Part shown: in pieces, positions 19,973 to 44,099 of the stretch
Layout: every line of letters starts with the position of its first letter
Position numbering within the stretch: position 1 is the first letter of the stretch
From: Shigella phage SSP1
Strand: one strand, 5' to 3'
Sequence record: KY963424
Length of the DNA: 64,000 bases
Position numbers and translations under genes: made by a program
Notes under the pieces: model-generated
Seen by the model: the letters and a program-made list of their open reading frames with translations, nothing else
Told to the model about the DNA's origin: nothing
Databases searched by the model: none

Positions 19973-20002
19973 AAAGCGCAGGGCAATTGCCCTGCGCTAA
20001 AT

Positions 20003-20160: not shown

Positions 20161-20161
20161 G

Positions 20162-20745: not shown

Positions 20746-20855
20746 AATAACTCCCTAGTAAATATATTTTTGCCAATAGTGGCGAACGTTATCGCCCCCA
20801 GCGGAATCATTAGCGGCCTTACTATTACCAACGAAAGTATATAATCTCATTAGTA

Positions 20856-21017: not shown

Positions 21018-21018
21018 A

Positions 21019-21363: not shown

Positions 21364-21364
21364 T

Positions 21365-21699: not shown

Positions 21700-21701
21700 T
21701 T

Positions 21702-21881
21702 TTATTCTCCTTTACTATTCATGCAGCCCAGCAGATAAGAAAATGCAGCGATACCCGCGCCAATAATAACCATTGGTTTTGTGACTACTAAACCGCAATA
21801 ATCTTGAATGCCGTAAGCGGTGGCGAAAAGGGTCAAAATAGCGCCCAAGATACCCGCCAGAATAGCTCGAAAAATAACCAT
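21702..21881 (-). CDS. small two-TM membrane peptide (59 aa, cassette)
   Basis: GGGGAG RBS; MVIFRAILAGILGAILTLFATAYG...MVIIGAGIAAFSYLLG; below track cutoff. Confidence 0.45.
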   Translation of the reverse strand: MVIFRAILAGILGAILTLFATAYGIQDYCGLVVTKPMVIIGAGIAAFSYLLGCMNSKGE

Positions 21882-21931
21882 TTTTTAATACTCCCCTAGT
21901 TAGTGGGGCGAAAGTAACGCCCCGTTATTAA

Positions 21932-22162
21932 TTACATTAAGATAATTTTTGCAGCTTGTTTTTTGGTGCAATGTTCCGCCTTCAGGGTATCCAGCAAAAA
22001 GCCCGCTGTTTGTTGATCGATTTGATCATTATCATAAAGCGTCTGGATGGTGTTATAAGTTTTAGCAATGCCGTATTCTTGGACCATTTCTTGAATAATC
22101 CAGCGATTTGATACCCAGCCTTTACCAGTGAAAAGAGCGTCAGAAGAAGAAAAAGCAACCAT
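21932..22162 (-). CDS. hypothetical protein (cassette)
   Basis: 76-aa ORF on cassette strand. Confidence 0.5.
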   Translation of the reverse strand: MVAFSSSDALFTGKGWVSNRWIIQEMVQEYGIAKTYNTIQTLYDNDQIDQQTAGFLLDTLKAEHCTKKQAAKIILM

Positions 22163-22277
22163 TTTAAGCCTCCAAATTTTTGGGAAAATTTTCGACCGTC
22201 CTCAAACGGTGTAAAGGCATTATAACAAAAAAGGCCACCATAAAAGGCGACCTTTACAAAACTTTACAATAGGCTAG

Positions 22278-23267: not shown

Positions 23268-23552
23268 TTGTTGGCCTCCTCGTTAATCGGTGAGTGAATG
23301 ATAAGGGTAATTTTCTAGTATAGGCAAAGATTATTTTACTTTTTTATTTTCCTTGCCTAGTGCCTAATTTTATGCTAACCGCGCAGCGGTGTAATAAAGA
23401 GCAAAACACGGCGAAGCCACCAGGGCGCCGCATTGCCGCCACCTGGCCAACGTGTTGGGCCTTTACTTTAATATTACCCCGCAGCGTTTAGCTCGTTAGA
23501 AAGCGTTTTAGGCGGCCTAAAATTGATTGCAGTCGTTAACACTGCCTTTCTA

Positions 23553-23572
23553 CCCTGTATATTTATACAGTA
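23553..23572. promoter_or_regulatory. LexA box-like palindrome (CTGTATATTTATACAG core)
   Basis: CTGT-N8-ACAG with AT spacer, 17 of 20 to LexA consensus; inverted copy of the site at 20276-20295. Confidence 0.5.
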
Positions 23573-23686
23573 GGATAACCTGTGGATAACTCTGTGTAAA
23601 AGTCCCCATATCGCCGCCTATTGTGTCAAATTATTTTGTGCTGTGGATAACGTTGTGGATAACTTAAATGATAGTGGTTCTCACTT
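23553..23686 (+). repeat. right arm of inverted repeat carrying DnaA boxes
   Basis: TGTGGATAA at 23581-23589, 23642-23650, 23654-23662; reverse complement matches 20162-20295. Confidence 0.8.
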
Positions 23687-23696
23687 ATGCCGATAG

Positions 23697-23765
23697 TTTC
23701 TTATAGTTATTATTATAATGGTGATGATTACATATAGCTATTATTATAGTGGTGATGATTTCATA
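23697..23765 (+). repeat. AT-rich direct repeats (two copies of about 31 bp)
   Basis: AGTTATTATTATAATGGTGATGATTACATAT and AGCTATTATTATAGTGGTGATGATTTCATAT in tandem inside a 350-bp AT-rich non-coding stretch. Confidence 0.75.
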
Positions 23766-24045
23766 TAGTTATTATTTCTCATTAATTTATAAGTATATTA
23801 TATATCATGAAATAGTTAGTTGGCTAATGAGATTTTCCGTGATTAATAGTCTGCTAATAGTTCAGGCCGTTACAATCCACCAGCATGATTATCATCCTAG
23901 CAATTATTAGTCTGCTATCTTTCCGATGCATACTAACAAATAAAAGTCAATTAATTAATTTTATAAAATAAGTCATTTGATCTTGATTTTTAAAAGTCAA
24001 GACCTTTTCCAACTATTTTTCAATTTTGCGTTTGTTAATGATTTG

Positions 24046-24285
24046 TTAAGTCGAAAATAGGCGGCCTAAAACGCCCCAGAACGCAATAAAGTTTTTAGCC
24101 ATCCCATCATAAGGGGATATGCCGTTTATCGCTGCCACGAGGTTTTTGGATTTTGTCAAGTAGGGCAGGGCAAATATAAATGAAAAAATTACTTGCCTAT
24201 TTGCTTTGTTTTGTGGTATTCGCGCGCCCGTTTCTTTTAATTTTGGGCCGTCGCCGGACGTGGTGCGGAAAACTGTATTAGCCAT
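24046..24285 (-). CDS. hypothetical protein (doubtful)
   Basis: 79-aa minus-strand ORF without clear RBS or promoter. Confidence 0.25.
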   Translation of the reverse strand: MANTVFRTTSGDGPKLKETGARIPQNKANRQVIFSFIFALPYLTKSKNLVAAINGISPYDGMAKNFIAFWGVLGRLFST

Positions 24286-24286
24286 A

Positions 24287-24314
24287 TTGCTAATAATTTT
24301 GATATAATATAATA
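24287..24314 (+). promoter_or_regulatory. sigma70 promoter (TTGCTA-N16-TATAAT)
   Basis: -35 24287-24292, -10 24309-24314, upstream of HNH gene with AGGAG RBS. Confidence 0.5.
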
Positions 24315-24342
24315 ACCAAATGAAACTAATAGGAGAATACTA

Positions 24343-24684
24343 ATGATTGAACTAACAAAAGATATTGATTTAGAAACCGTACTAGATAACCTTTACTATG
24401 ATGAAACTAGTCCTAGTTGCCTACGGTGGAAAGTATCCCGCCCCGGTTGCGCCCTTCATGGGGTAGCAGGTACTAAACGGAAGGATGGCTATTGGTCTGT
24501 TCAACTAAATAAAGAGCGTTATCTTGCGCATCGTATTGTGTGGTTACTATTTAATTATAAAATAGATAGCAAACTAGTAATTGATCATATTGATCGTAAT
24601 CCTAGTAACAATTTTATTGATAACTTACGGTTAGTAACTCAAGCCGAAAACAACCAAAATAAAGGAGAGTATAGAAAGGCGTAA
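24343..24684 (+). CDS. HNH homing endonuclease
   Basis: LAHRIVWLLF...IDHIDRNPSNNFIDNLRLVTQAENN HNH_3 motif; AT-rich relative to neighbours. Confidence 0.75.
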   Translation: MIELTKDIDLETVLDNLYYDETSPSCLRWKVSRPGCALHGVAGTKRKDGYWSVQLNKERYLAHRIVWLLFNYKIDSKLVIDHIDRNPSNNFIDNLRLVTQAENNQNKGEYRKA

Positions 24685-24804
24685 AATTTACATTTCTTTA
24701 CAAATATAAGGTTGCGCCTTTTTCGTTATTTGTTATTATTTATCTCGTAGGGCGGCAATGACGAACTACACGGCGGGAAGTTTACCGCCGCGCTCTTTAA
24801 AAAT

Positions 24805-24828
24805 TGGGTATATCTTAAAGCCTATCGG
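24805..24828 (+). repeat. left copy of 24-bp inverted repeat TGGGTATATCTTAAAGCCTA(T/C)CGG
   Basis: Reverse complement of 25075-25098 with one mismatch. Confidence 0.8.
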
Positions 24829-24862
24829 CGGTAAACTTATTACATTATAAGGAATCGACGAT

Positions 24863-25066
24863 ATGAAACAAACTTTATTGATCACTGGTAAACCTAGCAA
24901 GGCACTGGATAGCAAAACAAAAAATTTATTGACAGTAGCGCAAAGATCGGTAAAATATCGATTTGAGCAGTACAAGAAAGGCCGCCAGCAAGGTTTAGAA
25001 ATGATCTGGCGAAATATTATGATCGACCTGAAGGAAAATCATAAAAAACTGCAAAAAATAGTTTGA
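24863..25066 (+). CDS. hypothetical basic 67-aa protein flanked by inverted repeats
   Basis: ORF with AAGGAA RBS lying between the two 24-bp repeat copies. Confidence 0.45.
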   Translation: MKQTLLITGKPSKALDSKTKNLLTVAQRSVKYRFEQYKKGRQQGLEMIWRNIMIDLKENHKKLQKIV

Positions 25067-25074
25067 CAACATAG

Positions 25075-25098
25075 CCGGTAGGCTTTAAGATATACCCA
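25075..25098 (-). repeat. right copy of 24-bp inverted repeat
   Basis: CCGGTAGGCTTTAAGATATACCCA is reverse complement of left copy. Confidence 0.8.
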
Positions 25099-25296
25099 GT
25101 TCGATAAGAGCGATAACTTGATACAATTTGACGGTCGGTACTTACCATAATGTGCCCCGCCCCCTAACTGGGATATAGCGGCCCGCGTGGAGTTCCTTAA
25201 ATTGATTTTATAATGGCGAGCGGATTTTTTCTTATTACCTGTTATTTTCCAGCAGGTAATGCGGAACAATCCCCTAAATAACTTGGAGTTTATACC

Positions 25297-25548
25297 ATGA
25301 AAAACGTTATTACCGCGCCTAAAATTGGTCAATCTGTTTTCATCCCTTTCGTTACTAAAACGGATGAATTAACCGGAAAAGCCGAACGTATTAAAGGCGC
25401 GGCGCTCATGCCGTTCGATACAATCGATGCGGTATACGCTGAAACAGAACGCAGTAACAACGGCAAGCCGATTTATAACGTTCGCGTTAAATCTGGCGAC
25501 GTTGTAAAGGTTGTTCAACGCAACGAAAAATGGGAAGCCGTTTTATAA
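25297..25548 (+). CDS. hypothetical pre-early protein
   Basis: ORF preceded by conserved leader CCCCTAAATAACTTGGAGTTTATACC. Confidence 0.55.
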   Translation: MKNVITAPKIGQSVFIPFVTKTDELTGKAERIKGAALMPFDTIDAVYAETERSNNGKPIYNVRVKSGDVVKVVQRNEKWEAVL

Positions 25549-25562
25549 TTTAGTGTTAACTT

Positions 25563-25590
25563 TATATGCCCCAGTAGTTCGGGGCATATA
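25563..25590 (+). other. GC-cored hairpin without U-tract (pre-early intergenic punctuation)
   Basis: 10-bp stem TATATGCCCC/GGGGCATATA with 8-nt loop. Confidence 0.6.
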
Positions 25591-25646
25591 ACGATTAACA
25601 TTATGTTAATCTTATCCCTTAAATTAAATTAATTGGAGTTTATATC

Positions 25647-26054
25647 ATGACTAACGTTAAAGCCGCAAAATTCACCTGGAACGAAGAAAACACCCAAAAA
25701 GCTGTTACCATGTATCAGCAGTTAATCAATGAAAACGGATTAGAATTCGCAAACAGCGACGGCCTGAAAGAGATTGCGAAAGCAGTGGGCGCGACTTCTC
25801 CCGTGTCAGTTCGTTCGAAATTGACCAGCGCGAAAGCCTATCAAAAAAGCGATAAGCCTCGCAAGGTTGGCGGCGGTAGCTCAATCCGCAAGGCTCATTA
25901 TGTGCGAGTAATTGCAAGACACGCCATCGATTCCGGCATTATCAAAGACGCCGATGATCTGGCAAGCCTTGAAAGCGCGAAGCTGGAAACGCTGGACGCC
26001 GTGGCGCAGTTGTTAGGCGTTGCCGATGAGGTGAAACAAGCCGCAGGCGAATAA
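25647..26054 (+). CDS. hypothetical pre-early protein
   Basis: ORF preceded by leader CCTTAAATTAAATTAATTGGAGTTTATATC. Confidence 0.55.
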   Translation: MTNVKAAKFTWNEENTQKAVTMYQQLINENGLEFANSDGLKEIAKAVGATSPVSVRSKLTSAKAYQKSDKPRKVGGGSSIRKAHYVRVIARHAIDSGIIKDADDLASLESAKLETLDAVAQLLGVADEVKQAAGE

Positions 26055-26062
26055 ATTTAATT

Positions 26063-26088
26063 AGTGGGGATTATTCCCCACTATTTTC
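26063..26088 (+). terminator. hairpin / possible terminator
   Basis: Stem AGTGGGGA/TCCCCACT loop TTAT followed by ATTTTCC. Confidence 0.5.
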
Positions 26089-26109
26089 CCCTTGATTGGA
26101 GTTTTTAAA

Positions 26110-26307
26110 ATGATCTTTTACCCCACTGAATCGCTCATTCTAGGCTTATTTATTATGGCGGCCTCGTTATTGTTCGCATATTTTCAAAATGATTTAGATT
26201 CGTATTATTTTAAACGCAAATCTAAGTTAGCGAAGCGTTTGGGCCTGATTTGTTTTATTGCCGCCGTTGCTTGTGGTGTTAGTTCTAGCCTGATGCCGAT
26301 TAGTTAA
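26110..26307 (+). CDS. small two-TM membrane protein (pre-early)
   Basis: ATG after TTGGAGTTTTTAAA leader; hydrophobic LILGLFIMAASLLFAYF and LGLICFIAAVACGV. Confidence 0.5.
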   Translation: MIFYPTESLILGLFIMAASLLFAYFQNDLDSYYFKRKSKLAKRLGLICFIAAVACGVSSSLMPIS

Positions 26308-26319
26308 ATATTGCAAATT

Positions 26320-26345
26320 ATAACGCCTATTATTGGAGGCGTTAT
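26320..26345 (+). other. intergenic hairpin
   Basis: Stem ATAACGCCT/AGGCGTTAT. Confidence 0.55.
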
Positions 26346-26347
26346 AT

Positions 26348-26364
26348 TTGGCAATATTTGCCAA
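26348..26364. promoter_or_regulatory. 17-bp palindrome TTGGCAA-TAT-TTGCCAA (operator-like)
   Basis: Perfect 7-bp half-sites, located about 40 bp upstream of A1 start. Confidence 0.4.
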
Positions 26365-26404
26365 TAACAAACGTTTTTTAATCCCTTTAATGGAGTTTAT
26401 TATT

Positions 26405-28075
26405 ATGATTATTTCCGCAGAAAAACAAACCGTTATCCTGAAGCTGGCCGCTGACTTTAATTTCTATGGTAAACGTCTGCGCGCCACTAAATTGGAAGTA
26501 TGTGACGATATTTCGAAAGCGGTATACGATACACCGAAACACTCTACCGCGATTTGTGATTGGCTGGAAGCAAATAAACCAGCGAAACCGAAAACGGCAA
26601 AAGTAGCAAAAGCTATTAAAAACGACGAGCGCCCCGAGGCGGCTGGAATTATTTCTAGCACGGTGGAACAGTGGGAAGTAAAGCAGGGCAAACGCTTTAT
26701 TATTACATCGATTCAGAATAATACTTTCCCGCATAAAAACTTTTTGGCCTCACTGGAACAATACGCTAAATTTATCGGCGCTGATTTACTTGTTTCTAAG
26801 TATATTTATAACAAAAACGGCTTTCAAAATGGTGAAGGCGCGGACGGTGTAAAATATGATTCCGCGTTTGATAAGTATATTTGCAGCAAAAACGTGTTTT
26901 TAAATAACCGCCGTTTTGCTTTCATGGCTGAAATTAATGTTCTGCCCACTGCAGACTATCCGCTGTCTGGATTCGCAGAAACTGCAACGGCTCTCAATCT
27001 TGAAGGTCTGGCAATTGGTCACGCTAAAATCACCGCCGAAAGCGTGCCAGCTCTCAAAGGTGAAGTAGTACGCCGCATGTACTCAACCGGAACGGCAACA
27101 CTCAAAAACTACATTCAGCAGAAAGCAGGACAGAAAGCGGAAGCACTGCATAATTTCGGTGCGCTGATTGTTGAGTTCGACGAAGACGGTGAGTTTTTTG
27201 TGCGCCAGCTTGAAACGATGGACGAAAGCGGCATGTTTTACGATTTGAATATTTGCGCGACCCCCGCCGGATGTTATGAAACATCGGGGCATGTTTTAGG
27301 TTTACAATATGGCGACATACACGCCGAAAAACTTGATGAGGAGTGCGCCGCAGCGTCATGGGGTCATGGTGATACTTATGGGCTAGTGGATATTCTTAAA
27401 CCTAAATATCAGTTTGTGCATGACGTTCACGATTTTACATCACGCAACCATCACAACCGCGCTTCAGGTGTATTTCTAGCGAAACAGTATGCAGCCGGAC
27501 GTGACAAGGTTCTGGATGATCTCATCGACACCGGGCGCGTGCTGGAATCAATGGAACGTGATTTTAGTCAAACGATCATTGTCGAATCTAATCACGATCT
27601 GGCGCTATCCCGTTGGCTTGATGATCGCAATGCTAACATTAAAGACGATCCAGCCAACGCGGAACTGTATCACCGCCTTAATGCTGCGATTTACGCGGCA
27701 ATCGGTAATCATGACGATACTTTCAACGTGCTGGATTATGCGCTGCGTACGGTTGCAGGTTGCGAGTTTAACGCGATTTTCCTGACAACTGACCAATCGT
27801 TTAAAATCGCAGGCATTGAATGCGGCGTACACGGTCACAACGGCATTAACGGGAGCCGTGGCAATCCGAAGCAATTCAAGAAATTGGGCAAGTTAAACAC
27901 GGGGCACACCCACACCGCCAGCATTTACGGCGGCGTTTATACCGCTGGCGTCGCTGGTTCCCTCGATATGGGCTATAACGTTGGCGCGTCAAGCTGGACG
28001 CAAACGCATTTAATTACCTATGCAAACGGCCAGCGCACTTTGATTGACTTTAAAAACGGCAAATTTTTCGCATAA
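26405..28075 (+). CDS. A1: A1 pre-early protein (metallophosphatase-fold, host DNA degradation/takeover)
   Basis: 556 aa from ATG 26405 as recalled for T5 A1; phosphoesterase motifs GDIHAE and GHGD; conserved pre-early leader. Confidence 0.75.
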   Translation: MIISAEKQTVILKLAADFNFYGKRLRATKLEVCDDISKAVYDTPKHSTAICDWLEANKPAKPKTAKVAKAIKNDERPEAAGIISSTVEQWEVKQGKRFIITSIQNNTFPHKNFLASLEQYAKFIGADLLVSKYIYNKNGFQNGEGADGVKYDSAFDKYICSKNVFLNNRRFAFMAEINVLPTADYPLSGFAETATALNLEGLAIGHAKITAESVPALKGEVVRRMYSTGTATLKNYIQQKAGQKAEALHNFGALIVEFDEDGEFFVRQLETMDESGMFYDLNICATPAGCYETSGHVLGLQYGDIHAEKLDEECAAASWGHGDTYGLVDILKPKYQFVHDVHDFTSRNHHNRASGVFLAKQYAAGRDKVLDDLIDTGRVLESMERDFSQTIIVESNHDLALSRWLDDRNANIKDDPANAELYHRLNAAIYAAIGNHDDTFNVLDYALRTVAGCEFNAIFLTTDQSFKIAGIECGVHGHNGINGSRGNPKQFKKLGKLNTGHTHTASIYGGVYTAGVAGSLDMGYNVGASSWTQTHLITYANGQRTLIDFKNGKFFA

Positions 28076-28082
28076 TTAAATT

Positions 28083-28110
28083 TATAAGCGGGGTATATAC
28101 CCCGCTTATA
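28083..28110 (+). other. GC-cored hairpin without U-tract
   Basis: Stem TATAAGCGGGG/CCCCGCTTATA around TATATA loop. Confidence 0.6.
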
Positions 28111-28142
28111 TCCCTTATTAAATTAATTGGAGTTTTATAACT

Positions 28143-28535
28143 ATGAAAAAGCAAAATATCCCATTCGATCGCGCTCAATCTTCCATCGTTCTGGTTTATT
28201 CTAATGGTGAGCGGTATCACGTTGAGGCCGGTCACGTTGTTGATGATTTAATCGACTTTAATGACGCTTTACAGATTACTACTTTCGCCTATACGCAAGG
28301 CCGCGCAAGTAGTCACATCAAGGCCGCAGGCGTTTATGTTGATACGGTGAAGCAGGAAACGATTATCATCGACGCCGTAAAATCCGGTCTAGCCTTTGCA
28401 GTTGTCGCGCCTTGTCCAGCTTGCTTTGATGATCAGCTATCGAGCGCAAAGGTATATATCTGCGCGGGTGTTCGTTCTCATGTATCCGGCGAAGATATTA
28501 GTTTCATCGCTGATGCGTTGGCTTATGGTCTTTGA
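28143..28535 (+). CDS. A2: A2-like pre-early protein (assignment by position and size)
   Basis: 130-aa ORF between A1 and dmp with conserved leader TTAAATTAATTGGAGTTTTATAACT. Confidence 0.45.
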   Translation: MKKQNIPFDRAQSSIVLVYSNGERYHVEAGHVVDDLIDFNDALQITTFAYTQGRASSHIKAAGVYVDTVKQETIIIDAVKSGLAFAVVAPCPACFDDQLSSAKVYICAGVRSHVSGEDISFIADALAYGL

Positions 28536-28548
28536 TAGTTGATTTATT

Positions 28549-28575
28549 ATTGCCCGCTGATAAATAGCGGGCAAT
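28549..28575 (+). other. GC-cored hairpin without U-tract
   Basis: 10-bp stem ATTGCCCGCT/AGCGGGCAAT, loop GATAAAT. Confidence 0.6.
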
Positions 28576-28615
28576 GCTGGATAAACTAAATCCCTTTAAT
28601 GGAGAACGTAACAAA

Positions 28616-29350
28616 ATGAATCAAGTTAAAATGAATATTACCCGTAATTTCCCGCATATTTCCCGCGTCATGATTTGGGATCTGGACGGAACAATCATTA
28701 ATTCATTCCATCGTGTCGCGCCTTGCTTTGATAGCGAGGGTAATTTAGATTTAAATAAGTATAAGAATGAAGCGTGTAAGCATCATTTAATAATGCAAGA
28801 TACCTTATTGCCTTTGGTTGAATATATGCGCCAGTGCATGAATGACGCAAATACTTTAAACATTATTTGTACCGCTCGACTAATGAGCAAATCGGACTAT
28901 TATTATTTGCGCAAACAAGGCTTACGCGGTCGTGGGGATAGTAATATCCGCGTGTTTTCCCGCGATACGCTGCATAAATATTTTGAAGCTGATAAAGTTA
29001 GCGAAATATACCACAGTAAGGACGCAGTTTATAAATCGTATTATTTTGAGCTATTCAAACAACTATATCCGAACGCTGATTTTACAATGATTGATGATCA
29101 TAAAGGTGTATTATCAGCGGCAGCGTCATACGGATTTAAAACGCTGGACGCGCAAGCCGTTAATGATATTCTATCAATCGGCGTGGCATTGATAGGCGGA
29201 ACCTTTATTGATGAATCTCTCGATGATGATAATGATTATCAGTTCCTAGCGGACCGCTTAAAACTATGTTGGGAAAGCATGACCGAAGAAGAACGCGCAG
29301 AATATAGTTGCAGCCCGCAACAATATATTGAGAAATTAAAAGTTGCGTAA
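28616..29350 (+). CDS. dmp: 5-prime-deoxyribonucleotidase (HAD family)
   Basis: 244 aa from ATG 28616 as recalled for T5 Dmp; HAD motif I WDLDGTI. Confidence 0.75.
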   Translation: MNQVKMNITRNFPHISRVMIWDLDGTIINSFHRVAPCFDSEGNLDLNKYKNEACKHHLIMQDTLLPLVEYMRQCMNDANTLNIICTARLMSKSDYYYLRKQGLRGRGDSNIRVFSRDTLHKYFEADKVSEIYHSKDAVYKSYYFELFKQLYPNADFTMIDDHKGVLSAAASYGFKTLDAQAVNDILSIGVALIGGTFIDESLDDDNDYQFLADRLKLCWESMTEEERAEYSCSPQQYIEKLKVA

Positions 29351-29526
29351 TAATTAAAATTGAAATAGTTTCATCCTGTAATTAAAAATGGTTGCAGGGT
29401 GAAACAGTTAGCAGGGTAATAGTCACGGGGGTGGCGGTTAGCAGACTAAGTATTTTCGCCCTAGCCACTGGACTCACCCACGCGTACGTAATCCAAAGAA
29501 TTTGGCAAAAGTCATTTTAGCGCTAA

Positions 29527-30024
29527 TTAATTATGATTTGCAAACTCACCGTGATAGTGCTCCCTGGCTTTTCTAAGTTCTTTTTCAGCCTGCTCAAGAG
29601 TTTTAAAAGTTCCCACGGTAATCCTATTGCCATTTACACGTAATTTTGCTTCGAACTTTTCCTCACCACGTTTATATACTCCCTTAACTCCGGTAGACTC
29701 ATTCTTCCATCCCGAAGAGTTTTTGCCATTCTCTGCATTTGTTGCTTTACGCAGGTTATTCCATCTATTGTTGAAAGGATCTTGATCTTTATGATCAATG
29801 AGAAACTCACTCGGATCTTCTCCTGTCATGTATAGATATGCTACCCGATGGGCTTTATATAACCCATTACTGCCCATTGATAGGGATATTCCTGAGCTGT
29901 TTCTACTGCCTGCTGGCTTACCTTTACGACTTCCCGAGTTCCAAGTAAAGATACCAGTTCCAGGATCATAATCAAATTTCTTCTGGTATTCTGCTAAGGG
30001 CAGTAGAGGTTTATGATTTGCCAT
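29527..30024 (-). CDS. HNH homing endonuclease with AP2-like domain
   Basis: AHRVAYLYMTGEDPSEFLIDHKDQDPFNNRWNNLRKATNAEN; 165 aa, paralog of 5634-6131. Confidence 0.75.
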   Translation of the reverse strand: MANHKPLLPLAEYQKKFDYDPGTGIFTWNSGSRKGKPAGSRNSSGISLSMGSNGLYKAHRVAYLYMTGEDPSEFLIDHKDQDPFNNRWNNLRKATNAENGKNSSGWKNESTGVKGVYKRGEEKFEAKLRVNGNRITVGTFKTLEQAEKELRKAREHYHGEFANHN

Positions 30025-30229
30025 CTATCTTGGATCTCCTCCGAGAACTTCTTGAACCGTCATTCCACTCCCGCTCAAACTCCGCACGTTTCTCATCAAA
30101 CTTCCGCTCCCTTTCCGCAATCTCCCGCGATACTTCCGCAATATATTTACGATGCTTGTTGATTGCCGCAGTCGTCCCGAAAACTCCCGCGAGTATCCCG
30201 ATAATAAAAGCAATTACAATACTAAACAT
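30011..30229 (-). CDS. small single-pass membrane protein with charged C-terminus
   Basis: TM segment FSIVIAFIIGILAGVFGTTAAI then Arg/Glu-rich tail; coupled to upstream ORF. Confidence 0.5.
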   Translation of the reverse strand: MFSIVIAFIIGILAGVFGTTAAINKHRKYIAEVSREIAERERKFDEKRAEFEREWNDGSRSSRRRSKIDGKS

Positions 30230-30416
30230 CTAATTCCCTCTCAATTTGCAGAATACGGGTGCTATCACAACGTTGCAGTAGTACTAGCTTTTCTAGAATA
30301 ACTTGTTGTTGTTTCACCTGAGCTTCTAGAGTTTTTAGGCGGAGATACACGATACGAGAGACAATGAGGATTACCCAGACTAATATTACTATTAGTGTAA
30401 CTGCCACCTCCATCAT
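30222..30416 (-). CDS. small single-pass membrane protein
   Basis: TM segment VAVTLIVILVWVILIVSRIVYL; ATGA overlap with upstream ORF. Confidence 0.5.
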   Translation of the reverse strand: MMEVAVTLIVILVWVILIVSRIVYLRLKTLEAQVKQQQVILEKLVLLQRCDSTRILQIERELDV

Positions 30417-30520
30417 TTACGTTTCTCCAATAATAAGGTCTCAATTCTAGCTAAGTGATTATCTAAAATACACTGTCCAATAATCACAATCCCTAGTAGT
30501 GTAATAATTACCCATTCCAT
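30413..30520 (-). CDS. small membrane peptide (35 aa)
   Basis: TAATG and ATGA coupling to both neighbours; MEWVIITLLGIVIIGQCIL; below track cutoff. Confidence 0.4.
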   Translation of the reverse strand: MEWVIITLLGIVIIGQCILDNHLARIETLLLEKRK

Positions 30521-30711
30521 TAAATCCACCCCGCCATAGCTGCTAACCAAAAGCCTACGAAAATAAAGAATAAGATAGTTCCGAACCCAAAACTATTTAT
30601 CCAGCTATCATACACCTCTCCACGTCTGCTCTTTCTTTTATTTGACATATCTTTCATGCTCCTGTAAATGTTGTATTTGGAATATTTTATATTTTGTGCA
30701 TAACCAACCAT
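30520..30711 (-). CDS. small C-terminally anchored membrane protein
   Basis: Basic N-terminus, C-terminal TM segment FGFGTILFFIFVGFWLAAMAGWI. Confidence 0.5.
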   Translation of the reverse strand: MVGYAQNIKYSKYNIYRSMKDMSNKRKSRRGEVYDSWINSFGFGTILFFIFVGFWLAAMAGWI

Positions 30712-30823
30712 GCTTGTGACTTCCTAGAGGACTTCTACTTTTCTTACATAGTGGTTTCTGCCAATATACCATCCAAGAAATAAAAAATTTAGTTTACTTG
30801 GATGTCTTTTTGCTTTATACTAA

Positions 30824-31090
30824 TTACAGGTAGTTAGATTGCTCTAGTTTAAATTTACAATCACCATATTTAAGGTCAAACTGACTGAGATCCCACCACC
30901 CAAACTTAGTGCGGAGCTGTACTACTGGAAAGCGATCTCCCTTAATACGAACTTTTTGAACCTTGAGGCCGTAATGTTCTTCTCCAGCACCACCAAAAGA
31001 TTTTACAAATCCAGTACAAAATGGTTTGGGAGCAGGTGCACAACCAGATAACATAACTGTGGTAACTAGTGCAATCACAAACTTTTTCAT
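30824..31090 (-). CDS. llp: Llp-like lytic-conversion lipoprotein (receptor-blocking)
   Basis: Signal peptide with lipobox LSGC; divergent from and adjacent to the receptor-binding protein gene; own strong early promoter. Confidence 0.65.
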   Translation of the reverse strand: MKKFVIALVTTVMLSGCAPAPKPFCTGFVKSFGGAGEEHYGLKVQKVRIKGDRFPVVQLRTKFGWWDLSQFDLKYGDCKFKLEQSNYL

Positions 31091-35294: not shown

Positions 35295-36511
35295 TGGGTT
35301 TTAAAAGCTGGATTACTGAAAAGCTAAATCCGGGTCAACGTATTATAAGAGACATGGAACCAGTTAGTCATCGCACTAACCGTAAGCCTTTTACCACTGG
35401 ACAAGCCTACAGTAAAATTGAGATTCTCAATAGAACTGCTAATATGGTTATAGATAGTGCGGCGGAGTGTTCTTATACTGTCGGAGATAAATATAATATT
35501 GTCACGTATGCCAATGGCATCAAGGCAAAGACTCTAGACACTCTCTTAAATGTACGACCTAATCCATTCATGGATATAAGCACATTCCGTAGACTTGTAG
35601 TCACTGACCTACTTTTTGAAGGTTGTGCATACATCTATTGGGATGGCACAGCACTTTATCATGTCCCTGCTGCACTTATGCAAGTAGAGGCAGATGCCAA
35701 TAAGTTTATCAAAAAATTTATATTTAATAATCAGATAGACTATCGCGTAGATGAGATTATCTTTATAAAGGATAACAGTTACGTGTGTGGCACAAATTCT
35801 CAAATTTCTGGACAATCTCGTGTTGCTACTGTTATTGATTCTCTTGAGAAGCGATCTAAGATGCTTAACTTTAAAGAGAAATTCCTCGATAACGGAACCG
35901 TGATTGGTCTTATTCTTGAGACGGATGAAATCCTGAACAAGAAATTGCGTGAGCGTAAACAAGAAGAATTACAACTAGATTATAATCCTAGTACTGGTCA
36001 GTCCTCTGTCCTGATTCTAGATGGTGGTATGAAAGCTAAACCGTACTCCCAAATATCCTCTTTTAAAGATCTAGACTTTAAGGAAGACATTGAAGGATTT
36101 AATAAATCCATCTGTCTAGCCTTTGGTGTTCCGCAAGTGTTACTTGATGGCGGTAATAATGCGAACATTCGACCAAATATCGAACTGTTCTATTACATGA
36201 CTATCATCCCTATGCTGAACAAACTGACTAGTTCTCTTACTTTCTTTTTTGGTTATAAGATTACTCCTAATACTAAGGAAGTAGCTGCGTTAACACCAGA
36301 CAAAGAAGCTGAGGCTAAACATTTAACCTCATTGGTTAATAATGGTATTATGACTGGTAATGAAGCTCGTTTAGAGCTGAACCTTGAACCTTTAGATGAT
36401 GAGCAGATGAATAAGATTCGTATTCCTGCTAACGTTGCTGGTTCTGCAACAGGCGTATCTGGTCAAGAAGGTGGTAGACCTCAAGGTTCCACCGAGGGAG
36501 ATAAAGAATGA
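35294..36511 (+). CDS. portal protein
   Basis: 405-aa protein between terminase and protease/capsid genes; size close to T5 pb7. Confidence 0.75.
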   Translation: MGFKSWITEKLNPGQRIIRDMEPVSHRTNRKPFTTGQAYSKIEILNRTANMVIDSAAECSYTVGDKYNIVTYANGIKAKTLDTLLNVRPNPFMDISTFRRLVVTDLLFEGCAYIYWDGTALYHVPAALMQVEADANKFIKKFIFNNQIDYRVDEIIFIKDNSYVCGTNSQISGQSRVATVIDSLEKRSKMLNFKEKFLDNGTVIGLILETDEILNKKLRERKQEELQLDYNPSTGQSSVLILDGGMKAKPYSQISSFKDLDFKEDIEGFNKSICLAFGVPQVLLDGGNNANIRPNIELFYYMTIIPMLNKLTSSLTFFFGYKITPNTKEVAALTPDKEAEAKHLTSLVNNGIMTGNEARLELNLEPLDDEQMNKIRIPANVAGSATGVSGQEGGRPQGSTEGDKE

Positions 36512-36990
36512 TTGATTATAATGGTCTAAAGACCATTTTTGGTGAAAAACTACCAGAATCTCATATCTTCTTTGCTACGGTTGCTGCGCATAAATATGTT
36601 CCTAGCTATGCTTTTCTACGTAGAGAACTAGGACTTTCATCTGCGCATACTAACCGTAAAGTATGGAAGAAATTTGTAGAGGCATATGGTAAAGCAGTTC
36701 CCCCTGCTCCACCATTAACTCTTTCTAAAGATTTAACTGCTAGTATGTCTATTACAGAAGGGGCAACATTAACACTTTCTGTTACTGCAACCGGTGGCAC
36801 CGGTCCTTATACTTACGCATGGACTAAAGATGGTTCTCCTATTCCAGGTGCTTCAGGAGCTACCTACACTAAGCCTGCAGCAGCTACTGATGATTCTGGA
36901 GTCTATAAAGCAACGGTTACAGATAGCAAGAAAGTTAGTAAACCTTCTACTGCATGTACAGTAACGGTTAATCCAGGTGTTGGAGGCTAA
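36508..36990 (+). CDS. head decoration protein with C-terminal Ig-like domain (pb10-like)
   Basis: C-terminal TLSVTATGGTGPYTYAWTKDGSPIPGASGATYT...GVYKATVTD is an Ig-like domain signature. Confidence 0.6.
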   Translation: MIDYNGLKTIFGEKLPESHIFFATVAAHKYVPSYAFLRRELGLSSAHTNRKVWKKFVEAYGKAVPPAPPLTLSKDLTASMSITEGATLTLSVTATGGTGPYTYAWTKDGSPIPGASGATYTKPAAATDDSGVYKATVTDSKKVSKPSTACTVTVNPGVGG

Positions 36991-37626: not shown

Positions 37627-37643
37627 CGGAGAATTATTTAAAA

Positions 37644-39020
37644 ATGACTATTGATATTAATAAGCTGAAAGAAGAACTTGGTCTGGGTGATCTGGCTAAA
37701 TCTCTGGAAGGTCTGACCGCTGCTCAGAAAGCTGCTGAAGCTGAACGTATGCGTAAAGAGCAGGAAGAAAAAGAACTGGCCCGTATGAATGACCTGGTTT
37801 CTAAAGCAGTTGGCGAAGATCGTCAGAAACTGGAAGAAGCTCTGACTCTGGTTAAGTCTCTGGACGAGAAATCCAAGAAGAGCGCAGAACTGTTTGCACA
37901 GACTGTAGAAAAACAGCAGGAAACTATTGTTGGTCTCCAGGATGAAATTAAATCTCTGCTGGCAGCTCGTGAAGGACGTTCCTTCGTCGGTGATAGCGTA
38001 GCTAAAGCACTGTACGGTACTCAGGAAAACTTTGAAGATGAAGTTGAAAAACTGGTTCTGTTATCTTATGTAATGGAAAAAGGCGTATTCGAGACCGAGC
38101 ACGGTCAGAGACACCTGAAAGCTGTAAACCAGTCCTCTTCAGTAGAAGTTTCTAGTGAAAGCTATGAAACTATTTTCTCCCAGCGTATTATTCGTGACCT
38201 GCAGAAAGAACTAGTAGTTGGTGCTCTGTTTGAAGAACTGCCAATGTCCAGCAAAATTCTTACTATGCTGGTTGAACCAGATGCTGGTAAAGCTACTTGG
38301 GTAGATGCTAATACATATGGTACTGATGCTACTACTGGTAACGAAGTTAAAGGTGCTCTGACTGAAATTCAGTTCAAAACCTATAAACTGGCTGCTAAGT
38401 CCTTCATTACTGATGAAACTGAAGAAGATGCAATCTTCTCCCTGCTACCATTGCTGCGTAAGCGTCTGATTGAAGCACACGCTGTTTCTATCGAAGAAGC
38501 GTTTATGACTGGTGACGGTACTGGTAAGCCTAAGGGTCTGCTGAAACTGGCTGAAGGCGATAGTGCTAAAGTTATTACTGAAGCTAAAGCTGATGGTTCT
38601 GTTCTAGTAACTGCTAAAACTATCTCTAAACTGCGTCGTAAACTGGGCCGTCATGGTCTGAAACTGAGCAAACTGGTACTTATCGTATCTATGGATGCTT
38701 ACTACGATCTGCTGGAAGATGAAGAATGGCAGGATGTTGCCCAGGTTGGTAATGATGCTGTTAAACTGCAAGGTCAGGTTGGTCGTATTTACGGTCTGCC
38801 GGTTGTAGTTTCTGAGTTCTTCCCGGCTAAAGCTAACTCTGCAGAGTTCGCAGTTATTGTTTATAAAGATAACTTCGTAATGCCGCGTCAGCGTGCTGTT
38901 ACTGTTGAACGTGAGCGCCAAGCTGGTAAACAGCGTGATGCGTACTACGTTACTCAGCGTGTTAACCTGCAACGTTACTTCGAAAACGGCGTTGTATCTG
39001 GTGCTTACGCTGCATCTTAA
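37644..39020 (+). CDS. major capsid protein precursor (pb8-like) with N-terminal scaffolding delta domain
   Basis: 458 aa; coiled-coil-rich first 150 aa; strongly host-optimised codon usage; position after protease. Confidence 0.85.
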   Translation: MTIDINKLKEELGLGDLAKSLEGLTAAQKAAEAERMRKEQEEKELARMNDLVSKAVGEDRQKLEEALTLVKSLDEKSKKSAELFAQTVEKQQETIVGLQDEIKSLLAAREGRSFVGDSVAKALYGTQENFEDEVEKLVLLSYVMEKGVFETEHGQRHLKAVNQSSSVEVSSESYETIFSQRIIRDLQKELVVGALFEELPMSSKILTMLVEPDAGKATWVDANTYGTDATTGNEVKGALTEIQFKTYKLAAKSFITDETEEDAIFSLLPLLRKRLIEAHAVSIEEAFMTGDGTGKPKGLLKLAEGDSAKVITEAKADGSVLVTAKTISKLRRKLGRHGLKLSKLVLIVSMDAYYDLLEDEEWQDVAQVGNDAVKLQGQVGRIYGLPVVVSEFFPAKANSAEFAVIVYKDNFVMPRQRAVTVERERQAGKQRDAYYVTQRVNLQRYFENGVVSGAYAAS

Positions 39021-39041
39021 TACAGGCTTTTCAGCCGATAA

Positions 39042-39065
39042 GGAGAGCTTCGGCTCTCCTTTTTT
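39042..39065 (+). terminator. intrinsic terminator
   Basis: Stem GGAGAGC/GCTCTCC with UUCG tetraloop then TTTTTT. Confidence 0.85.
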
Positions 39066-39079
39066 ATTGGGAAAAATAA

Positions 39080-39592
39080 ATGCAAATCATCACAGCCGAA
39101 GATTATAGATTATATGGTAGCTTAAAACGACCTGAATTAGAATCTGGTGTAGAAATGATGATTACTGCTGCCAATGCGCTGATCACGAGCCTTCTAGGCA
39201 TGGATGATGCTGATGCGGTAGACCAGTTAATCAATACAAAACCTACACGTAGGAAATATTTTCTGAGTTCACCATCTGCTACCTCCGTAACTAAAGTGAC
39301 GATTAATGATAATGAGATTGACCCAGAGCAGTATAAGCTATACTCTGACGGTATTATCCTTCTCAAATTTAATCCTCCAGAAGGTTATATGGATGTAGCA
39401 TATACACAAGGTGGATTTAATCCAGTGCCTGAAGATCTCAAACTTGCAGCGTGTATGCTAGTAGATCATTGGCATAAACAAGATTATCGCCAAGCTAAAA
39501 CAATTGGTGGTGAAACAGTAACCTTCAATAGCACTAAGTCTGGTATTCCAGAGCATATTCGTACTATTATTGAAGTATATAGGAGAGTATAA
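39080..39592 (+). CDS. head completion / head-tail connector protein (putative)
   Basis: 170-aa ORF immediately after capsid gene. Confidence 0.5.
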   Translation: MQIITAEDYRLYGSLKRPELESGVEMMITAANALITSLLGMDDADAVDQLINTKPTRRKYFLSSPSATSVTKVTINDNEIDPEQYKLYSDGIILLKFNPPEGYMDVAYTQGGFNPVPEDLKLAACMLVDHWHKQDYRQAKTIGGETVTFNSTKSGIPEHIRTIIEVYRRV

Positions 39593-40874: not shown

Positions 40875-42281
40875 ATGTCTTTACAACTATTACGTAATAC
40901 TCGAATCTTCGTGTCTACGGTTAAGACCGGTCACAATAAGACCAACACGCAAGAGATTCTAGTTCAGGATGATATTTCTTGGGGTCAGGACAGTAACTCA
41001 ACAGATATTACTGTTAATGAAGCTGGTCCGCGTCCAACTCGTGGTTCTAAACGTTTTAATGACTCTTTAAACGCAGCTGAGTGGAGTTTCTCTACTTATA
41101 TCCTGCCATATAAAGATAAAACTACTAACAAACAGATTGTTCCTGACTATATGTTATGGCATGCACTTTCTAGTGGTAAAGCTCTTAACCTAGAAGGTGA
41201 TACAGGAGCACACAATAACGAAGCTAACTTTATGGTTAACTTCAAAGATAACTCTTATCACGAGTTAGCAATGTTACATATTTATATTCTGACCGATAAA
41301 GCATGGAGTTATATCGATTCCTGTCAGATTAATCAGGCAGAAGTTAACGTTGATATTGAAGATATTGGTCGTGTAACTTGGTCTGGTAATGGTAATCAGC
41401 TTATTCCTCTGGATGCTCAGCCATTTGATCCTGATACTGTAGGTATTGATGATGAAACTTATATGACTATTCAGAGTTCTTATATCAAGAACAAATTGAC
41501 TATCCTGAAAATTAAGGATATGGATTCTGATAAGGCATATGATATCCCTATTACTGGCGGTACTTTCACCATTAATAACAATATCACGTACCTAACCCCG
41601 AATATTATGTCCCGTGTAAATATTCCGATCGGTTCATTTACTGGTGCGTTTGAATTAACTGGTTCACTAACTGCCTATCTAAATGATAAATCTCTTGGTT
41701 CTATGGAGCTGTACAAAGATCTTATCAAGACTCTGAAGGTAGTTAACAAGTTTGAAATTGCACTTATCCTTGGTGGTGAGTATGATGATGAACGCCCGGC
41801 AGCTGTGTTAGTTGCTAAACAGGCGCATGTTAACATTCCTACTATTGAGACTGATGATGTACTTGGTACTTCAGTAGAGTTTAAAGCTATTCCTACAGAT
41901 CTGGATACTGGTGATGAAGGTTATCTTGGTTTCTCTAGCAAGTATACTAAAACCACTGTGGCTAATCTGATTGCTACAGGAGATGGCGCTAAAACTCCAC
42001 CAAAACTAGTTGAATCAATCACAGTTAAATCTGCTGGTAATGTCACTTCAGTAGCGAACAGTAATACTCTACAGATGTCTGTTGAAGTAACTCCGCCAGA
42101 TGCTACTAATAGTGCCGTAACCTGGTCTATTTCTAGTGGTGATGCAGCTACAATTGATCCAGAGTCTGGTCTATTAACTGCGGACACTACTAAGACAGGC
42201 TCTGTTACTGTCAAAGCTGTAGCTAAAGACGGTTCTGGTGTAGAAGGTACTAAGAGCATTACAGTTACTGCTGGTGGCTAA
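40875..42281 (+). CDS. major tail tube protein (pb6-like) with C-terminal Ig-like domain
   Basis: 468 aa; C-terminal Big_2-like segment VTSVANSNTLQMSVEVTPPDATNSAVTWSISSGDAATIDPESGLLTA. Confidence 0.8.
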   Translation: MSLQLLRNTRIFVSTVKTGHNKTNTQEILVQDDISWGQDSNSTDITVNEAGPRPTRGSKRFNDSLNAAEWSFSTYILPYKDKTTNKQIVPDYMLWHALSSGKALNLEGDTGAHNNEANFMVNFKDNSYHELAMLHIYILTDKAWSYIDSCQINQAEVNVDIEDIGRVTWSGNGNQLIPLDAQPFDPDTVGIDDETYMTIQSSYIKNKLTILKIKDMDSDKAYDIPITGGTFTINNNITYLTPNIMSRVNIPIGSFTGAFELTGSLTAYLNDKSLGSMELYKDLIKTLKVVNKFEIALILGGEYDDERPAAVLVAKQAHVNIPTIETDDVLGTSVEFKAIPTDLDTGDEGYLGFSSKYTKTTVANLIATGDGAKTPPKLVESITVKSAGNVTSVANSNTLQMSVEVTPPDATNSAVTWSISSGDAATIDPESGLLTADTTKTGSVTVKAVAKDGSGVEGTKSITVTAGG

Positions 42282-42285: not shown

Positions 42286-43185
42286 ATGTACTACTCTCTA
42301 ATGAGAGAGTCAAAAGTTATAGTTGAGTATGATGGTAGGGCATTTCATTTTGATGCCCTATCAAACTATGATATACAGACTTCCTACGAGGAATTCAAGA
42401 CTCTTCGTAGGACTGTTCATCGTAGAACTAACTATGCAGACTCTATTATAAATGCTCAAACTCCCTCTTCTATCTCTCTAGCAGTAAATTTCAGTAATAC
42501 TCTTACTGAGGCTAACTTCTTTGAATGGTTAGGTTTTGATAGAAAAGGTAATACTTTCTTACTCCCACTATATAGTAGTAATATTGAACCTATTATGTTC
42601 AATATCTATATAGTAAATAAAGATAATAACTGTGTATATTTTGAAAACTGTTATGTATCTACGGTAGATTTTTCTTTAGATAAGAACATACCAATTCTTA
42701 ATGTTGGTATTGAGTCTGGGAAATTCTCAGAGGTATCTACCTATAGAGAAGCAGCTTCTATTATACAGGGTGAAGTAATGTCTTACAGCCCAGTAATAGC
42801 TTCTACTAATGGCAGCATCTTACCCGGTCTTATTTCTGCCTCTTTATCTTTCCAACAGCAGTGCTCCTGGAGAGAGGATAAGAGTGTTTTTGATATAAAT
42901 AAAATTTATAATAATAAAAGAGCCTATGTAACTGAAATGAATGCTTCGGCAACCATCTCTCTATACTACTTAAAACGTTTTGCAGGAGATATGGTTTATA
43001 ATATAGAACCGGAGATAGATATACCTTTAACGATAAGAAATAATAATATTTCTATAGATTTTCCTTCAGCACGTATTACAAAACGCCTAGAGTTCTCAGA
43101 TGTGTATAGAGTTGAGTGGGATATTATACCTACTGCTTCTTCAGACCCAGTGAGAATAGATTTCTTTGGAGAAATTAAAAAATGA
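42286..43185 (+). CDS. hypothetical tail-associated protein
   Basis: 299-aa ORF between tail tube and tape measure genes. Confidence 0.45.
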   Translation: MYYSLMRESKVIVEYDGRAFHFDALSNYDIQTSYEEFKTLRRTVHRRTNYADSIINAQTPSSISLAVNFSNTLTEANFFEWLGFDRKGNTFLLPLYSSNIEPIMFNIYIVNKDNNCVYFENCYVSTVDFSLDKNIPILNVGIESGKFSEVSTYREAASIIQGEVMSYSPVIASTNGSILPGLISASLSFQQQCSWREDKSVFDINKIYNNKRAYVTEMNASATISLYYLKRFAGDMVYNIEPEIDIPLTIRNNNISIDFPSARITKRLEFSDVYRVEWDIIPTASSDPVRIDFFGEIKK

Positions 43186-43586
43186 TTAATTTAAAAGATA
43201 TTACTCTTGATACTCGTACTATTACTCTTTCCTACCCAGGTATGCCGAACTTTAAACTAGAACTTAACTATATGTCTCGTGCTACCTCTAAACGTGTTAT
43301 TTCTTCTGCTAAACGCGATGAATGGGTTAACGGTACTTTGATTCAGGTGCAGGATGATGATAAGTTCATTGAAGCCTTTGTTGACGCAGCTATTAAAGGC
43401 TGGACTGGCTTAACTGTTGGTGACGTTGAAAAACTGATGCTGATTGAAACAGACGCTGATCCTACTACTGAAGTTCCTTTTAGCCGCGATAATGCTGTAA
43501 TGCTCATGCAGAACTCTGCTGCGTTTGATTCTTGGATCAACCAGACAGTGTTCCACTTAGACACTTTTCGTAGCCCAAAAGCGTAA
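43182..43586 (+). CDS. putative tail assembly chaperone
   Basis: 134-aa acidic protein upstream of tape measure gene. Confidence 0.45.
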   Translation: MINLKDITLDTRTITLSYPGMPNFKLELNYMSRATSKRVISSAKRDEWVNGTLIQVQDDDKFIEAFVDAAIKGWTGLTVGDVEKLMLIETDADPTTEVPFSRDNAVMLMQNSAAFDSWINQTVFHLDTFRSPKA

Positions 43587-43647: not shown

Positions 43648-44016
43648 ATGACCAAACAACAATATTTGATACTTTGTGAGTCAATGGGTATAGAACCTGA
43701 TCCTAAGGCTATGCCCGTTGAACTCGAAGATTTTCCACCTATTGTATCTATTAGTATGAATATTTATAACAGTCTGATTGACTGTTTCATACCTGGTGAC
43801 TTTCCTATTTTTATAGGTAAGGATAAGGCTGCATTAGGTGTTTTATTTGATATTTATGGGATTACTGATCCTATAGAAAAAGAATTTGTTCTACACATTA
43901 TCAATATATTTGATGCTAAAGCTGTAGATGCTGCACGTAAGCGTGCTGAGAAGCATAAACCGCAAAACGGAAGGATTCCTAACGTTAAGCCACATGCTAG
44001 ATCTCGTGCACGGTAA
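43648..44016 (+). CDS. putative tail assembly protein
   Basis: 122-aa ORF immediately upstream of tape measure gene. Confidence 0.4.
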   Translation: MTKQQYLILCESMGIEPDPKAMPVELEDFPPIVSISMNIYNSLIDCFIPGDFPIFIGKDKAALGVLFDIYGITDPIEKEFVLHIINIFDAKAVDAARKRAEKHKPQNGRIPNVKPHARSRAR

Positions 44017-44051: not shown

Positions 44052-44082
44052 GGCTCTGGGTGATTTGCCCAGAGCCTTTTTT
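44052..44082 (+). terminator. intrinsic terminator
   Basis: 9-bp stem GGCTCTGGG/CCCAGAGCC then TTTTTT. Confidence 0.85.
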
Positions 44083-44099
44083 ATTGGGAAAAATAAAAC

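Follow-up and report, generated by a model that had tools for sequence, protein, structure and literature searches.

Host-adapted codon usage in the major capsid gene of a T5-like phage

Introduction

Why should one gene of an AT-rich phage genome be written almost wholly in the codons that its enterobacterial host prefers in ribosomal protein genes? This question is raised by an open reading frame at positions 37644..39020 of sequence record KY963424 (Shigella phage SSP1), of which a stretch of 64,000 nucleotides, hereafter the window, was analysed. The initial annotation of this DNA had described the frame as a major capsid gene with markedly host-optimised codon usage, consistent with very high expression, and had proposed a gene-by-gene codon adaptation index (CAI) against E. 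coli ribosomal genes as a check.

Strong host-codon bias of a major capsid gene is a phenomenon already known. Using equivalent randomisation tests, Lucks, Nelson, Kudla & Plotkin (2008, PLoS Comput Biol; PMC2266997) reported that phage structural genes carry raised levels of host-preferred codons, and among their 50 phages the departure of CAI from randomness, with GC3 controlled, was most significant in T5 (NC_005859; P = 1.4e-31). An explicit statement on the codon usage of T5 pb8 was not found in the literature, where our search returned only this general result and one phage genome note giving a CAI for the whole genome.

Results

Gene identity and genomic setting

Sequence matches place the window in a T5-like phage of the genus Tequintavirus, near SPC35 and L6jm. 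Its gene order is that of the T5 head/tail module (receptor-binding protein, terminase, portal, pb10 decoration, prohead protease, capsid, adaptor, neck, terminator, tail tube), and the synteny of the head genes (portal, decoration, prohead protease, capsid, adaptor) is the same in L6jm, AKFV33 and LVR16A as well as in Klebsiella, Proteus and Vibrio T5-likes. The open reading frame at 37644..39020 (+) starts with ATG and encodes a pb8 homologue of 458 aa. Its region matches 448 phage records, headed by Salmonella and Escherichia T5-likes (Demerecviridae, Tequintavirus) at 97-98% identity, its flanks match SPC35, L6jm, E22 and NR01, and the N-domain of pb10 (PF21393) was found upstream of it; relatives annotate the gene as major head protein.

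At the protein level, the product hits PF05065 (Phage_capsid, HK97; E = 2.3e-22, residues 178-448) and phrog_10, major head protein (E = 6e-51), while the T5/DT57C pb8 structures 8zvi_A (E = 1e-274) and 8ho3_A cover residues 1-458. As the mature T5 chain 5tjt_A aligns with residues 160-458, residues 1-159 were assigned to a cleaved N-terminal scaffold domain, which gives a layout with roughly 159 aa of scaffold ahead of the mature HK97-fold domain. By homology, the frame is thus identified as the gene for an HK97-fold major capsid protein of the T5 pb8 type.

Size of the codon bias

CAI weights were derived from 35 E. coli K-12 genes (32 ribosomal proteins, tufA, tufB and fusA; 6015 codons); the reference is therefore E. 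coli K-12, and the actual host of the phage may be Salmonella. They were applied to 73 window genes defined consistently with the L6jm and SPC35 annotations. The proposed check bore out the earlier reading, as the capsid gene reached a CAI of 0.700, compared with a median of 0.308 (mean 0.318 +/- 0.084) for the other 72 genes, whose highest value of 0.572 belongs to a 98-codon open reading frame. The 35 reference genes themselves have a mean CAI of 0.68 and a minimum of 0.54, and among 36 ordinary E. coli genes (median 0.42) only dnaK (0.75) lies above the capsid gene. The ENC of 32.4 is also the lowest among the late genes scored, i.e. those longer than about 600 nt.

Resampling with the protein sequence held fixed and codons drawn from the rest of the phage gave a CAI of 0.317 +/- 0.018 with a maximum of 0.40 in 10,000 draws, which puts the capsid gene at z = 21. 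Drawing the same protein from E. coli ribosomal usage instead gave 0.705 +/- 0.022, indistinguishable from the 0.700 observed. A stricter null, in which both the protein and the GC3 class of each codon were held, gave 0.437 +/- 0.022 and left the gene at z = 12. Since the GC3 of the capsid gene is only 0.33, compared with 0.26-0.31 elsewhere in the window, the bias is not a GC effect. Host optimisation of the capsid codons is thereby confirmed, and it is stronger than the initial annotation had claimed.

Which codons carry the bias

CTG, CGT, GGT and AAA had been named as the dominant codons, and all four are indeed enriched, the first three strongly. CTG accounts for 40 of 49 leucine codons in the capsid gene (82%) as opposed to 12% in the other 72 genes (binomial P = 2.5e-29), CGT for 20 of 22 arginine codons (91% vs 38%; P = 3.6e-7) and GGT for 24 of 30 glycine codons (80% vs 49%; P = 5e-4). 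For AAA the enrichment is weak and only marginal (32 of 40 lysine codons, 80% vs 67%; binomial P = 0.048); as this codon prevails throughout the phage, it is a poor discriminator of the capsid gene. The contrast that had been drawn with tail-fibre and early genes holds as well: tail-fibre and receptor-binding genes use CTG for 8% of leucines at a pooled CAI of 0.31, and early genes for 10% at a pooled CAI of 0.30.

Several codons are nearly absent from the gene, namely ATA (0), AGA (1), TTA (1), GGA (1), ACA (1) and CAA (3), and it uses GCT, GGT, CGT, ACT, GTT and TCT, which are favoured by highly expressed rather than average E. coli genes. Phe, His, Asn and Tyr shift to C-ending codons, in contrast to Asp and Ile, which stay with GAT (83%) and ATT (78%) as in the rest of the phage and show no shift to the host-optimal C-ending codons. 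Codon optimisation of the capsid gene is thus incomplete for these two residues.

Three conditional codon models were compared, one each for highly expressed E. coli genes, for 34 ordinary E. coli genes and for the remaining phage genes. Of all window genes, only the capsid gene is fitted best by the high-expression model, with a margin of +0.36 bit/codon over the ordinary model (window median -0.39) and of +0.25 bit/codon over the rest-of-phage model, and in the likelihood ratio of high-expression over ordinary usage only dnaK exceeds it among 36 ordinary E. coli genes. Correlations between codon tables were in line with this, being 0.80 with the high-expression set, 0.63 with ordinary E. coli genes and 0.64 with the rest of the phage.

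Extent of the bias and other window genes

Measured over 60 codons, CAI is 0.34 where the protease gene ends and 0.77 where the capsid gene begins; at the other edge it falls from 0.80 to 0.28 in the adaptor gene, although both neighbours share the strand and the gene cluster of the capsid gene. Given these steps at both edges, the signal is confined to the reading frame. Within it, the first 15 codons are A/T-rich and have a lower CAI of 0.54.

Among long genes, the tail tube protein gene at 40875..42281 (+), a pb6 homologue matching phrog_3575 (major tail protein), ranks second after the capsid gene (CAI 0.44, z = 6.4). The tail assembly chaperone gene at 43182..43586 (+; phrog_313) has a CAI of 0.52 (z = 5.9), a level that is kept in the compared relatives L001, L005 and L007, and some short early or pre-early frames reach 0.54-0.57. 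The gene of the decoration protein pb10 reaches only 0.35, and the majority of the remaining structural genes, such as those for portal, tail tip and fibres, lie at 0.20-0.35, the average level of the genome.

Conservation among relatives and tracking of the host

Scored with E. coli weights, the capsid gene combines the highest CAI with the lowest ENC in six of six T5-like relatives, down to an amino acid identity of 57%, at which synonymous sites are presumably saturated. Roughly 900 T5-like capsid genes were found by search, of which these six relatives were compared. CAI values were 0.70 in L6jm and 0.68 in AKFV33 (both Tequintavirus), 0.73 in LVR16A (Epseptimavirus), 0.78 in a Klebsiella phage (Sugarlandvirus), 0.46 in Proteus phage Stubb and 0.41 in Vibrio phage Cody. 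The preferred leucine codons change along this series, since Stubb uses TTA for 19 of 44 leucines, and Cody uses CTA for 27 of 38 and CTG for 1 of 38.

As a Vibrionaceae reference we used a Photobacterium contig (L060) carrying tuf-rplKAJL, a small proxy of 1078 codons that does not come from Cody's own host; it was obtained by scanning genome contigs with E. coli EF-Tu, the other hits being mostly unrelated proteobacteria. Leucine in the EF-Tu and ribosomal genes of this contig is encoded by CTA (48%), CTT (32%) and CTG (15%). Rescoring with these weights lowered the CAI of the window capsid gene from 0.70 to 0.55 and raised that of the Cody capsid gene from 0.41 to 0.64. In this reciprocal test with the 1078-codon Photobacterium proxy, the best fit of either capsid gene is to the lineage of its own host, and either gene keeps the top rank in its own phage. 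The capsid codon bias has therefore persisted through evolution and changed along with the host lineage.

These comparisons bear on whether the gene could be a compositional island that owes its codons to ancestry, through recent horizontal transfer from a host-like source or a local mutational bias, rather than to selection. The capsid protein shares 91-93% amino acid identity with its relatives, less than the flanking protease and portal (98-100%), and the module is mosaic in dS, as a transferred segment might be. However, all T5-like genera examined have the gene in a syntenic position and with biased codons, the gene's GC3 of 0.33 is phage-like and not E. coli-like, the ordinary E. coli model fits it worse than the high-expression one, the bias stops exactly at the stop codon, and it is altered with the host in the Vibrio lineage. 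A GC-island or horizontal-transfer reading was rejected on the grounds of GC3, boundaries and conservation, and we consider an origin by ancestry extremely improbable. The dS values themselves, computed against three relatives, jump between 0.01 and more than 1 from one gene to the next and are not lower in the capsid gene than in its neighbours; because the module is a recombination mosaic, this comparison is uninformative.

Leader, terminator-like hairpin and promoter scan

Directly upstream of the gene, a putative translation-initiation leader at 37628..37643 (+) consists of GGAG at 37628-37631 and a 12-nt A/U-rich spacer (AAUUAUUUAAAA) that leads into the ATG. The 45-nt capsid leader is identical in three compared phages (L001, L005 and L006), and the element at 37628..37643 would serve translation initiation.

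Downstream, a pattern scan detected an intrinsic-terminator-like hairpin with a U-tract at 39040..39067 (+), which starts 20 nt past the capsid stop codon and combines a GC-rich 9-bp stem with a UUCG loop, the hairpin itself spanning 39040-39061. It folds at -20.7 kcal/mol (z = -3.4), and the AKFV33 annotation has a terminator at the same site. Klebsiella and Proteus T5-likes share this hairpin unchanged, despite capsid proteins that are only 70% and 57% identical, and Vibrio phage Cody carries a different hairpin at the same position. Its probable role in the window is to mark the 3' end of the capsid transcript, or to stabilise it, and to reduce read-through to the genes downstream. Its conservation would fit a capsid transcript that is separately dosed, stabilised and abundant, as in T7 gene 10 with T-phi. 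A scan for sigma-70-like promoters returned 41 sites compared with 50.5 +/- 8.4 in shuffled sequences, i.e. no excess, and a capsid-specific promoter is therefore not claimed.

A conserved and possibly stabilising 3' hairpin is also what one would expect if selection had acted on the mRNA itself. Under such a scenario, A/U-rich codons (UUA, CUA, AGA, AUA) would have been exchanged for CUG and CGU in order to lose RNase E sites or alter structure, yielding a longer half-life or better ribosome loading, with the likeness to the host as a by-product. The GC content of the capsid gene (0.44, compared with 0.33-0.41 in its neighbours) points the same way, as do the A/T-rich first 15 codons with their lower CAI, which are expected of an unstructured 5' end. 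Yet GC3 is low and most of the preferred codons end in U or A (GCT, GGT, CGT, ACT, GTT, GAA, AAA), the z score of 12 persists with GC3 controlled, and the Vibrio phage prefers the A-ending CTA, thereby tracking highly expressed Vibrionaceae genes rather than a loss of A and U. Selection on the mRNA is thus a very unlikely cause of the bias.

Relation to phage-encoded tRNAs

The window contains only two tRNA genes, for tRNA-Ile(GAU) and tRNA-Met(CAU), at 780-1028. Its close relative SPC35 carries 22 tRNAs, among them U34 species for CTA, AGA, GGA, ACA, CAA, TCA and CCA. Taken together with ATA, these A-ending codons make up 2.8% of capsid codons, compared with a median of 12% elsewhere. This raises the idea of a two-tier translation, in which the capsid message would be written for the major host tRNAs and the remaining genes in A-ending codons (CTA, AGA, GGA, ACA, CAA, TCA, ATA) read by U34 tRNAs of the phage; if true, the capsid mRNA would be spared competition for a small phage-tRNA pool. 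Lucks et al. (PMC2266997) found the relation of codon bias to phage tRNAs equivocal. When the 22 tRNAs of SPC35 were applied under strict wobble rules, 277 capsid codons were covered compared with 285 expected, showing no difference, and on account of this unchanged coverage no special relationship between the capsid gene and the phage tRNAs is claimed. The deficit of A-ending codons is equally explained by plain avoidance of host-rare codons, and we regard the two-tier arrangement as unlikely.

Copy number and expression level

To estimate the protein dose per virion, published copy numbers were combined with stoichiometries of the tail tip and the remaining structural proteins that we take to be those of T5. 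On the basis of the published values and the assumed tail-tip ones, about 77% of the residues synthesised per virion belong to the capsid precursor. Across 14 structural genes, those with more copies per virion tend to have a higher CAI (Spearman rho = 0.67, P = 0.009), where copies serve as a proxy for expression, several of them are assumed and pb10, at 120 copies, is not raised in CAI. The published T5 values are 775 pb8 per head, 120 pb10, 120 pb6 (40 trimers) and 12 portal subunits (PMC5292684, PMC11313276). Our literature search for T5 transcriptome or ribosome-profiling data found none, and we infer the very high expression suggested by the initial annotation from the 775 copies per capsid (PMC5292684, PMC11313276), the family-wide conservation of the bias and its tracking of the host, all of which support it.

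Discussion

Taken together, the bias of the capsid gene very likely results from translational selection on the most heavily synthesised protein of the phage. Each T5-type head takes up 775 copies of the 458-aa precursor, corresponding to roughly three quarters of the virion amino acids, so that capsid mRNA would occupy a large share of the ribosomes late in infection. Under such a load, synonymous changes toward codons of abundant host tRNAs (CUG, CGU, GGU, ACU, GCU, GUU, GAA, CAG, UUC) would have been fixed and host-rare codons (AUA, AGA, CUA, UUA, GGA, ACA, CAA) purged. The likely gain would be faster elongation with fewer stalls, which may free ribosomes sooner and deliver more capsid protein per unit time. 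The remaining AT-rich genome may lie near mutational equilibrium and lean partly on phage-encoded tRNAs for its A-ending codons.

Selection for accuracy is known to contribute to the codon bias of E. coli, and it could in principle have acted here in place of selection for speed: misincorporation would poison a lattice of 775 subunits, a structure plausibly sensitive to defective subunits, and the codons of lowest error would be favoured. In an Akashi-type test, however, optimal codons showed no enrichment at invariant relative to variable residues (Mantel-Haenszel OR 1.24, Fisher P = 0.29; one gene, limited power). Moreover, the scaffold domain, which is cleaved and poorly conserved (37 of 159 sites invariant), is as biased as the mature domain (CAI 0.709 vs 0.695). 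Within the limited power of this single-gene test, the equal CAI of the two domains and the lack of enrichment at invariant residues favour elongation efficiency, or ribosome economy, over accuracy, for which we see only a slim chance. We thus infer that the capsid bias is driven by expression level, with selection acting on the efficiency of elongation and not on accuracy.

While this finding leaves the current understanding of phage biology unchanged, it provides a clean quantitative case of translational selection on a single gene, set in an AT-rich phage genome that is otherwise unadapted, with preferred codons that vary with the host lineage. In practical terms, the CAI of the capsid gene relative to the ribosomal genes of candidate hosts could aid host prediction for T5-like contigs, and the gene is an obvious target for attenuation via synonymous recoding.

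Lucks et al. compared structural with non-structural genes and drew whole-genome landscapes, whereas in the window nearly all of the signal of the structural module resides in one gene. Major capsid genes of other phages, scored with the same weights, behave similarly. T4 gp23 (first 352 codons) reaches a CAI of 0.66 at a GC3 of 0.33, with neighbours at 0.30-0.52, and the genome of T4 around it is AT-rich and carries tRNA genes of its own. Gene 10A of T7 (0.61) and lambda E (0.51) also stand above their neighbours, and the value of 0.70 in the window is slightly above all three. With T7 our phage shares the layout of a strongly biased capsid gene that is followed by a terminator, T-phi in the case of T7. 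The two differ in the route to high expression, as T7 relies on the phi10 promoter and an RNA polymerase that it encodes itself, whereas T5-like phages, according to PMC7472727, use the host RNA polymerase throughout.

The closest standard of comparison is the host itself. Within the CAI framework of Sharp & Li, the capsid gene falls inside the range of the E. coli ribosomal and elongation factor genes. It departs from this reference set in its GAT and ATT usage (83% and 78%, compared with 35% and 25%) and in its threonine codons, for which it uses ACT where the reference mixes ACT and ACC. The adaptation to the host has thus been achieved within an AT-rich phage background, at a GC3 of 0.33.

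Codon usage and putative expression signals of the capsid gene

Codon usage in the capsid gene (37644–39020, + strand), which encodes the 458-aa major head protein, revealed an exception among two amino acids: Asp and Ile retained the T-ending codons typical of the phage (GAT in 20 of 24 and ATT in 14 of 18 cases, respectively), in contrast to the rest of the gene, which is host-optimised. The orthologue of the Klebsiella phage now carries C-ending codons for both Asp (13/25) and Ile (18/23). At the 5' end, codons 1–15 are A/T-rich, with the codon adaptation index (CAI) falling to 0.54. The sole Shine-Dalgarno-like element of the gene is a GGAG located 12 nt upstream of the ATG, a long spacing bridged by an A/U-rich spacer (GGAG and spacer, 37628–37643, +), and three relatives carry an identical 45-nt leader.

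Immediately 3' of the capsid gene, a terminator-like hairpin composed of AAGGAGAGC, a UUCG loop and GCUCUCCUU is followed by a U-tract (39040–39067, +). The same hairpin sequence was found in the T5-like phages of Klebsiella and Proteus, the capsid proteins of which share only 70% and 57% identity, respectively, with that of SSP1, and the Vibrio phage Cody carries a hairpin of another sequence at the same position after its capsid gene. In addition, an exact 21-mer, TTTTTTATTGGGAAAAATAAA, occurs twice in the window (39060–39080 and 44077–44097, both +), compared with a chance expectation of 0.01. In both places the 21-mer begins where a terminator-like hairpin reaches its 3' end. The last bases of the first copy overlap the adaptor start codon (39080), and the second copy stops 2 nt short of where the tape-measure gene starts (44100). 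This arrangement looks like a terminator-plus-restart module that is used twice and lacks an obvious Shine-Dalgarno sequence.

Genome organization and mosaicism

Synonymous divergence from three close relatives (L001, L005 and L006) ranged from approximately 0.01 to more than 1 between adjacent structural genes (31176–59315), which indicates pervasive recombination mosaicism in this region. Protein divergence in the same comparison was higher for capsid, tail tube and tape-measure proteins than for portal, protease and terminase.

The early genes (1–18920) are followed by the first-step-transfer/terminal-repeat genes (A1, A2, dmp), which run into the late structural module without a break (~19300–31000). 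As these two regions lie at opposite genome ends in linear T5-type records, the record seems to represent either an assembly with a collapsed terminal repeat or a genome joined as a circle. The genes for tRNA-Ile(GAU) (780–856, +) and tRNA-Met(CAU) (953–1028, +) form the edge of a large T5-type tRNA cluster, which comprises 22 genes in the relative SPC35. If lysidine-modified, the CAU tRNA could be an AUA-reading tRNA-Ile2.

Codon adaptation beyond the capsid gene

The highest CAI values below that of the capsid gene were obtained for two short genes of unknown function, an early gene (phrog_4821; 3105–3404, +; CAI 0.57, z = 4.5) and a pre-early gene of the first-step-transfer region (DUF7177/phrog_3747; 25297–25548, +; CAI 0.54, z = 3.6), the products of which may be early proteins made in abundance. 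Although pb10, the decoration protein with PF21393 and an Ig domain, is present in 120 copies per head, equal to the tail tube count, its gene (36508–36990, +) showed no codon adaptation (CAI 0.35, GC3 0.18). pb10 is also far more variable among relatives (60% identity to LVR16A). Of the tail-assembly chaperone genes, the first (43182–43586, +) is adapted (CAI 0.52), while the second (43648–44016, +) is not (0.28), a contrast that is kept in relatives and is reminiscent of lambda-type chaperones, with their high expression of G relative to GT.
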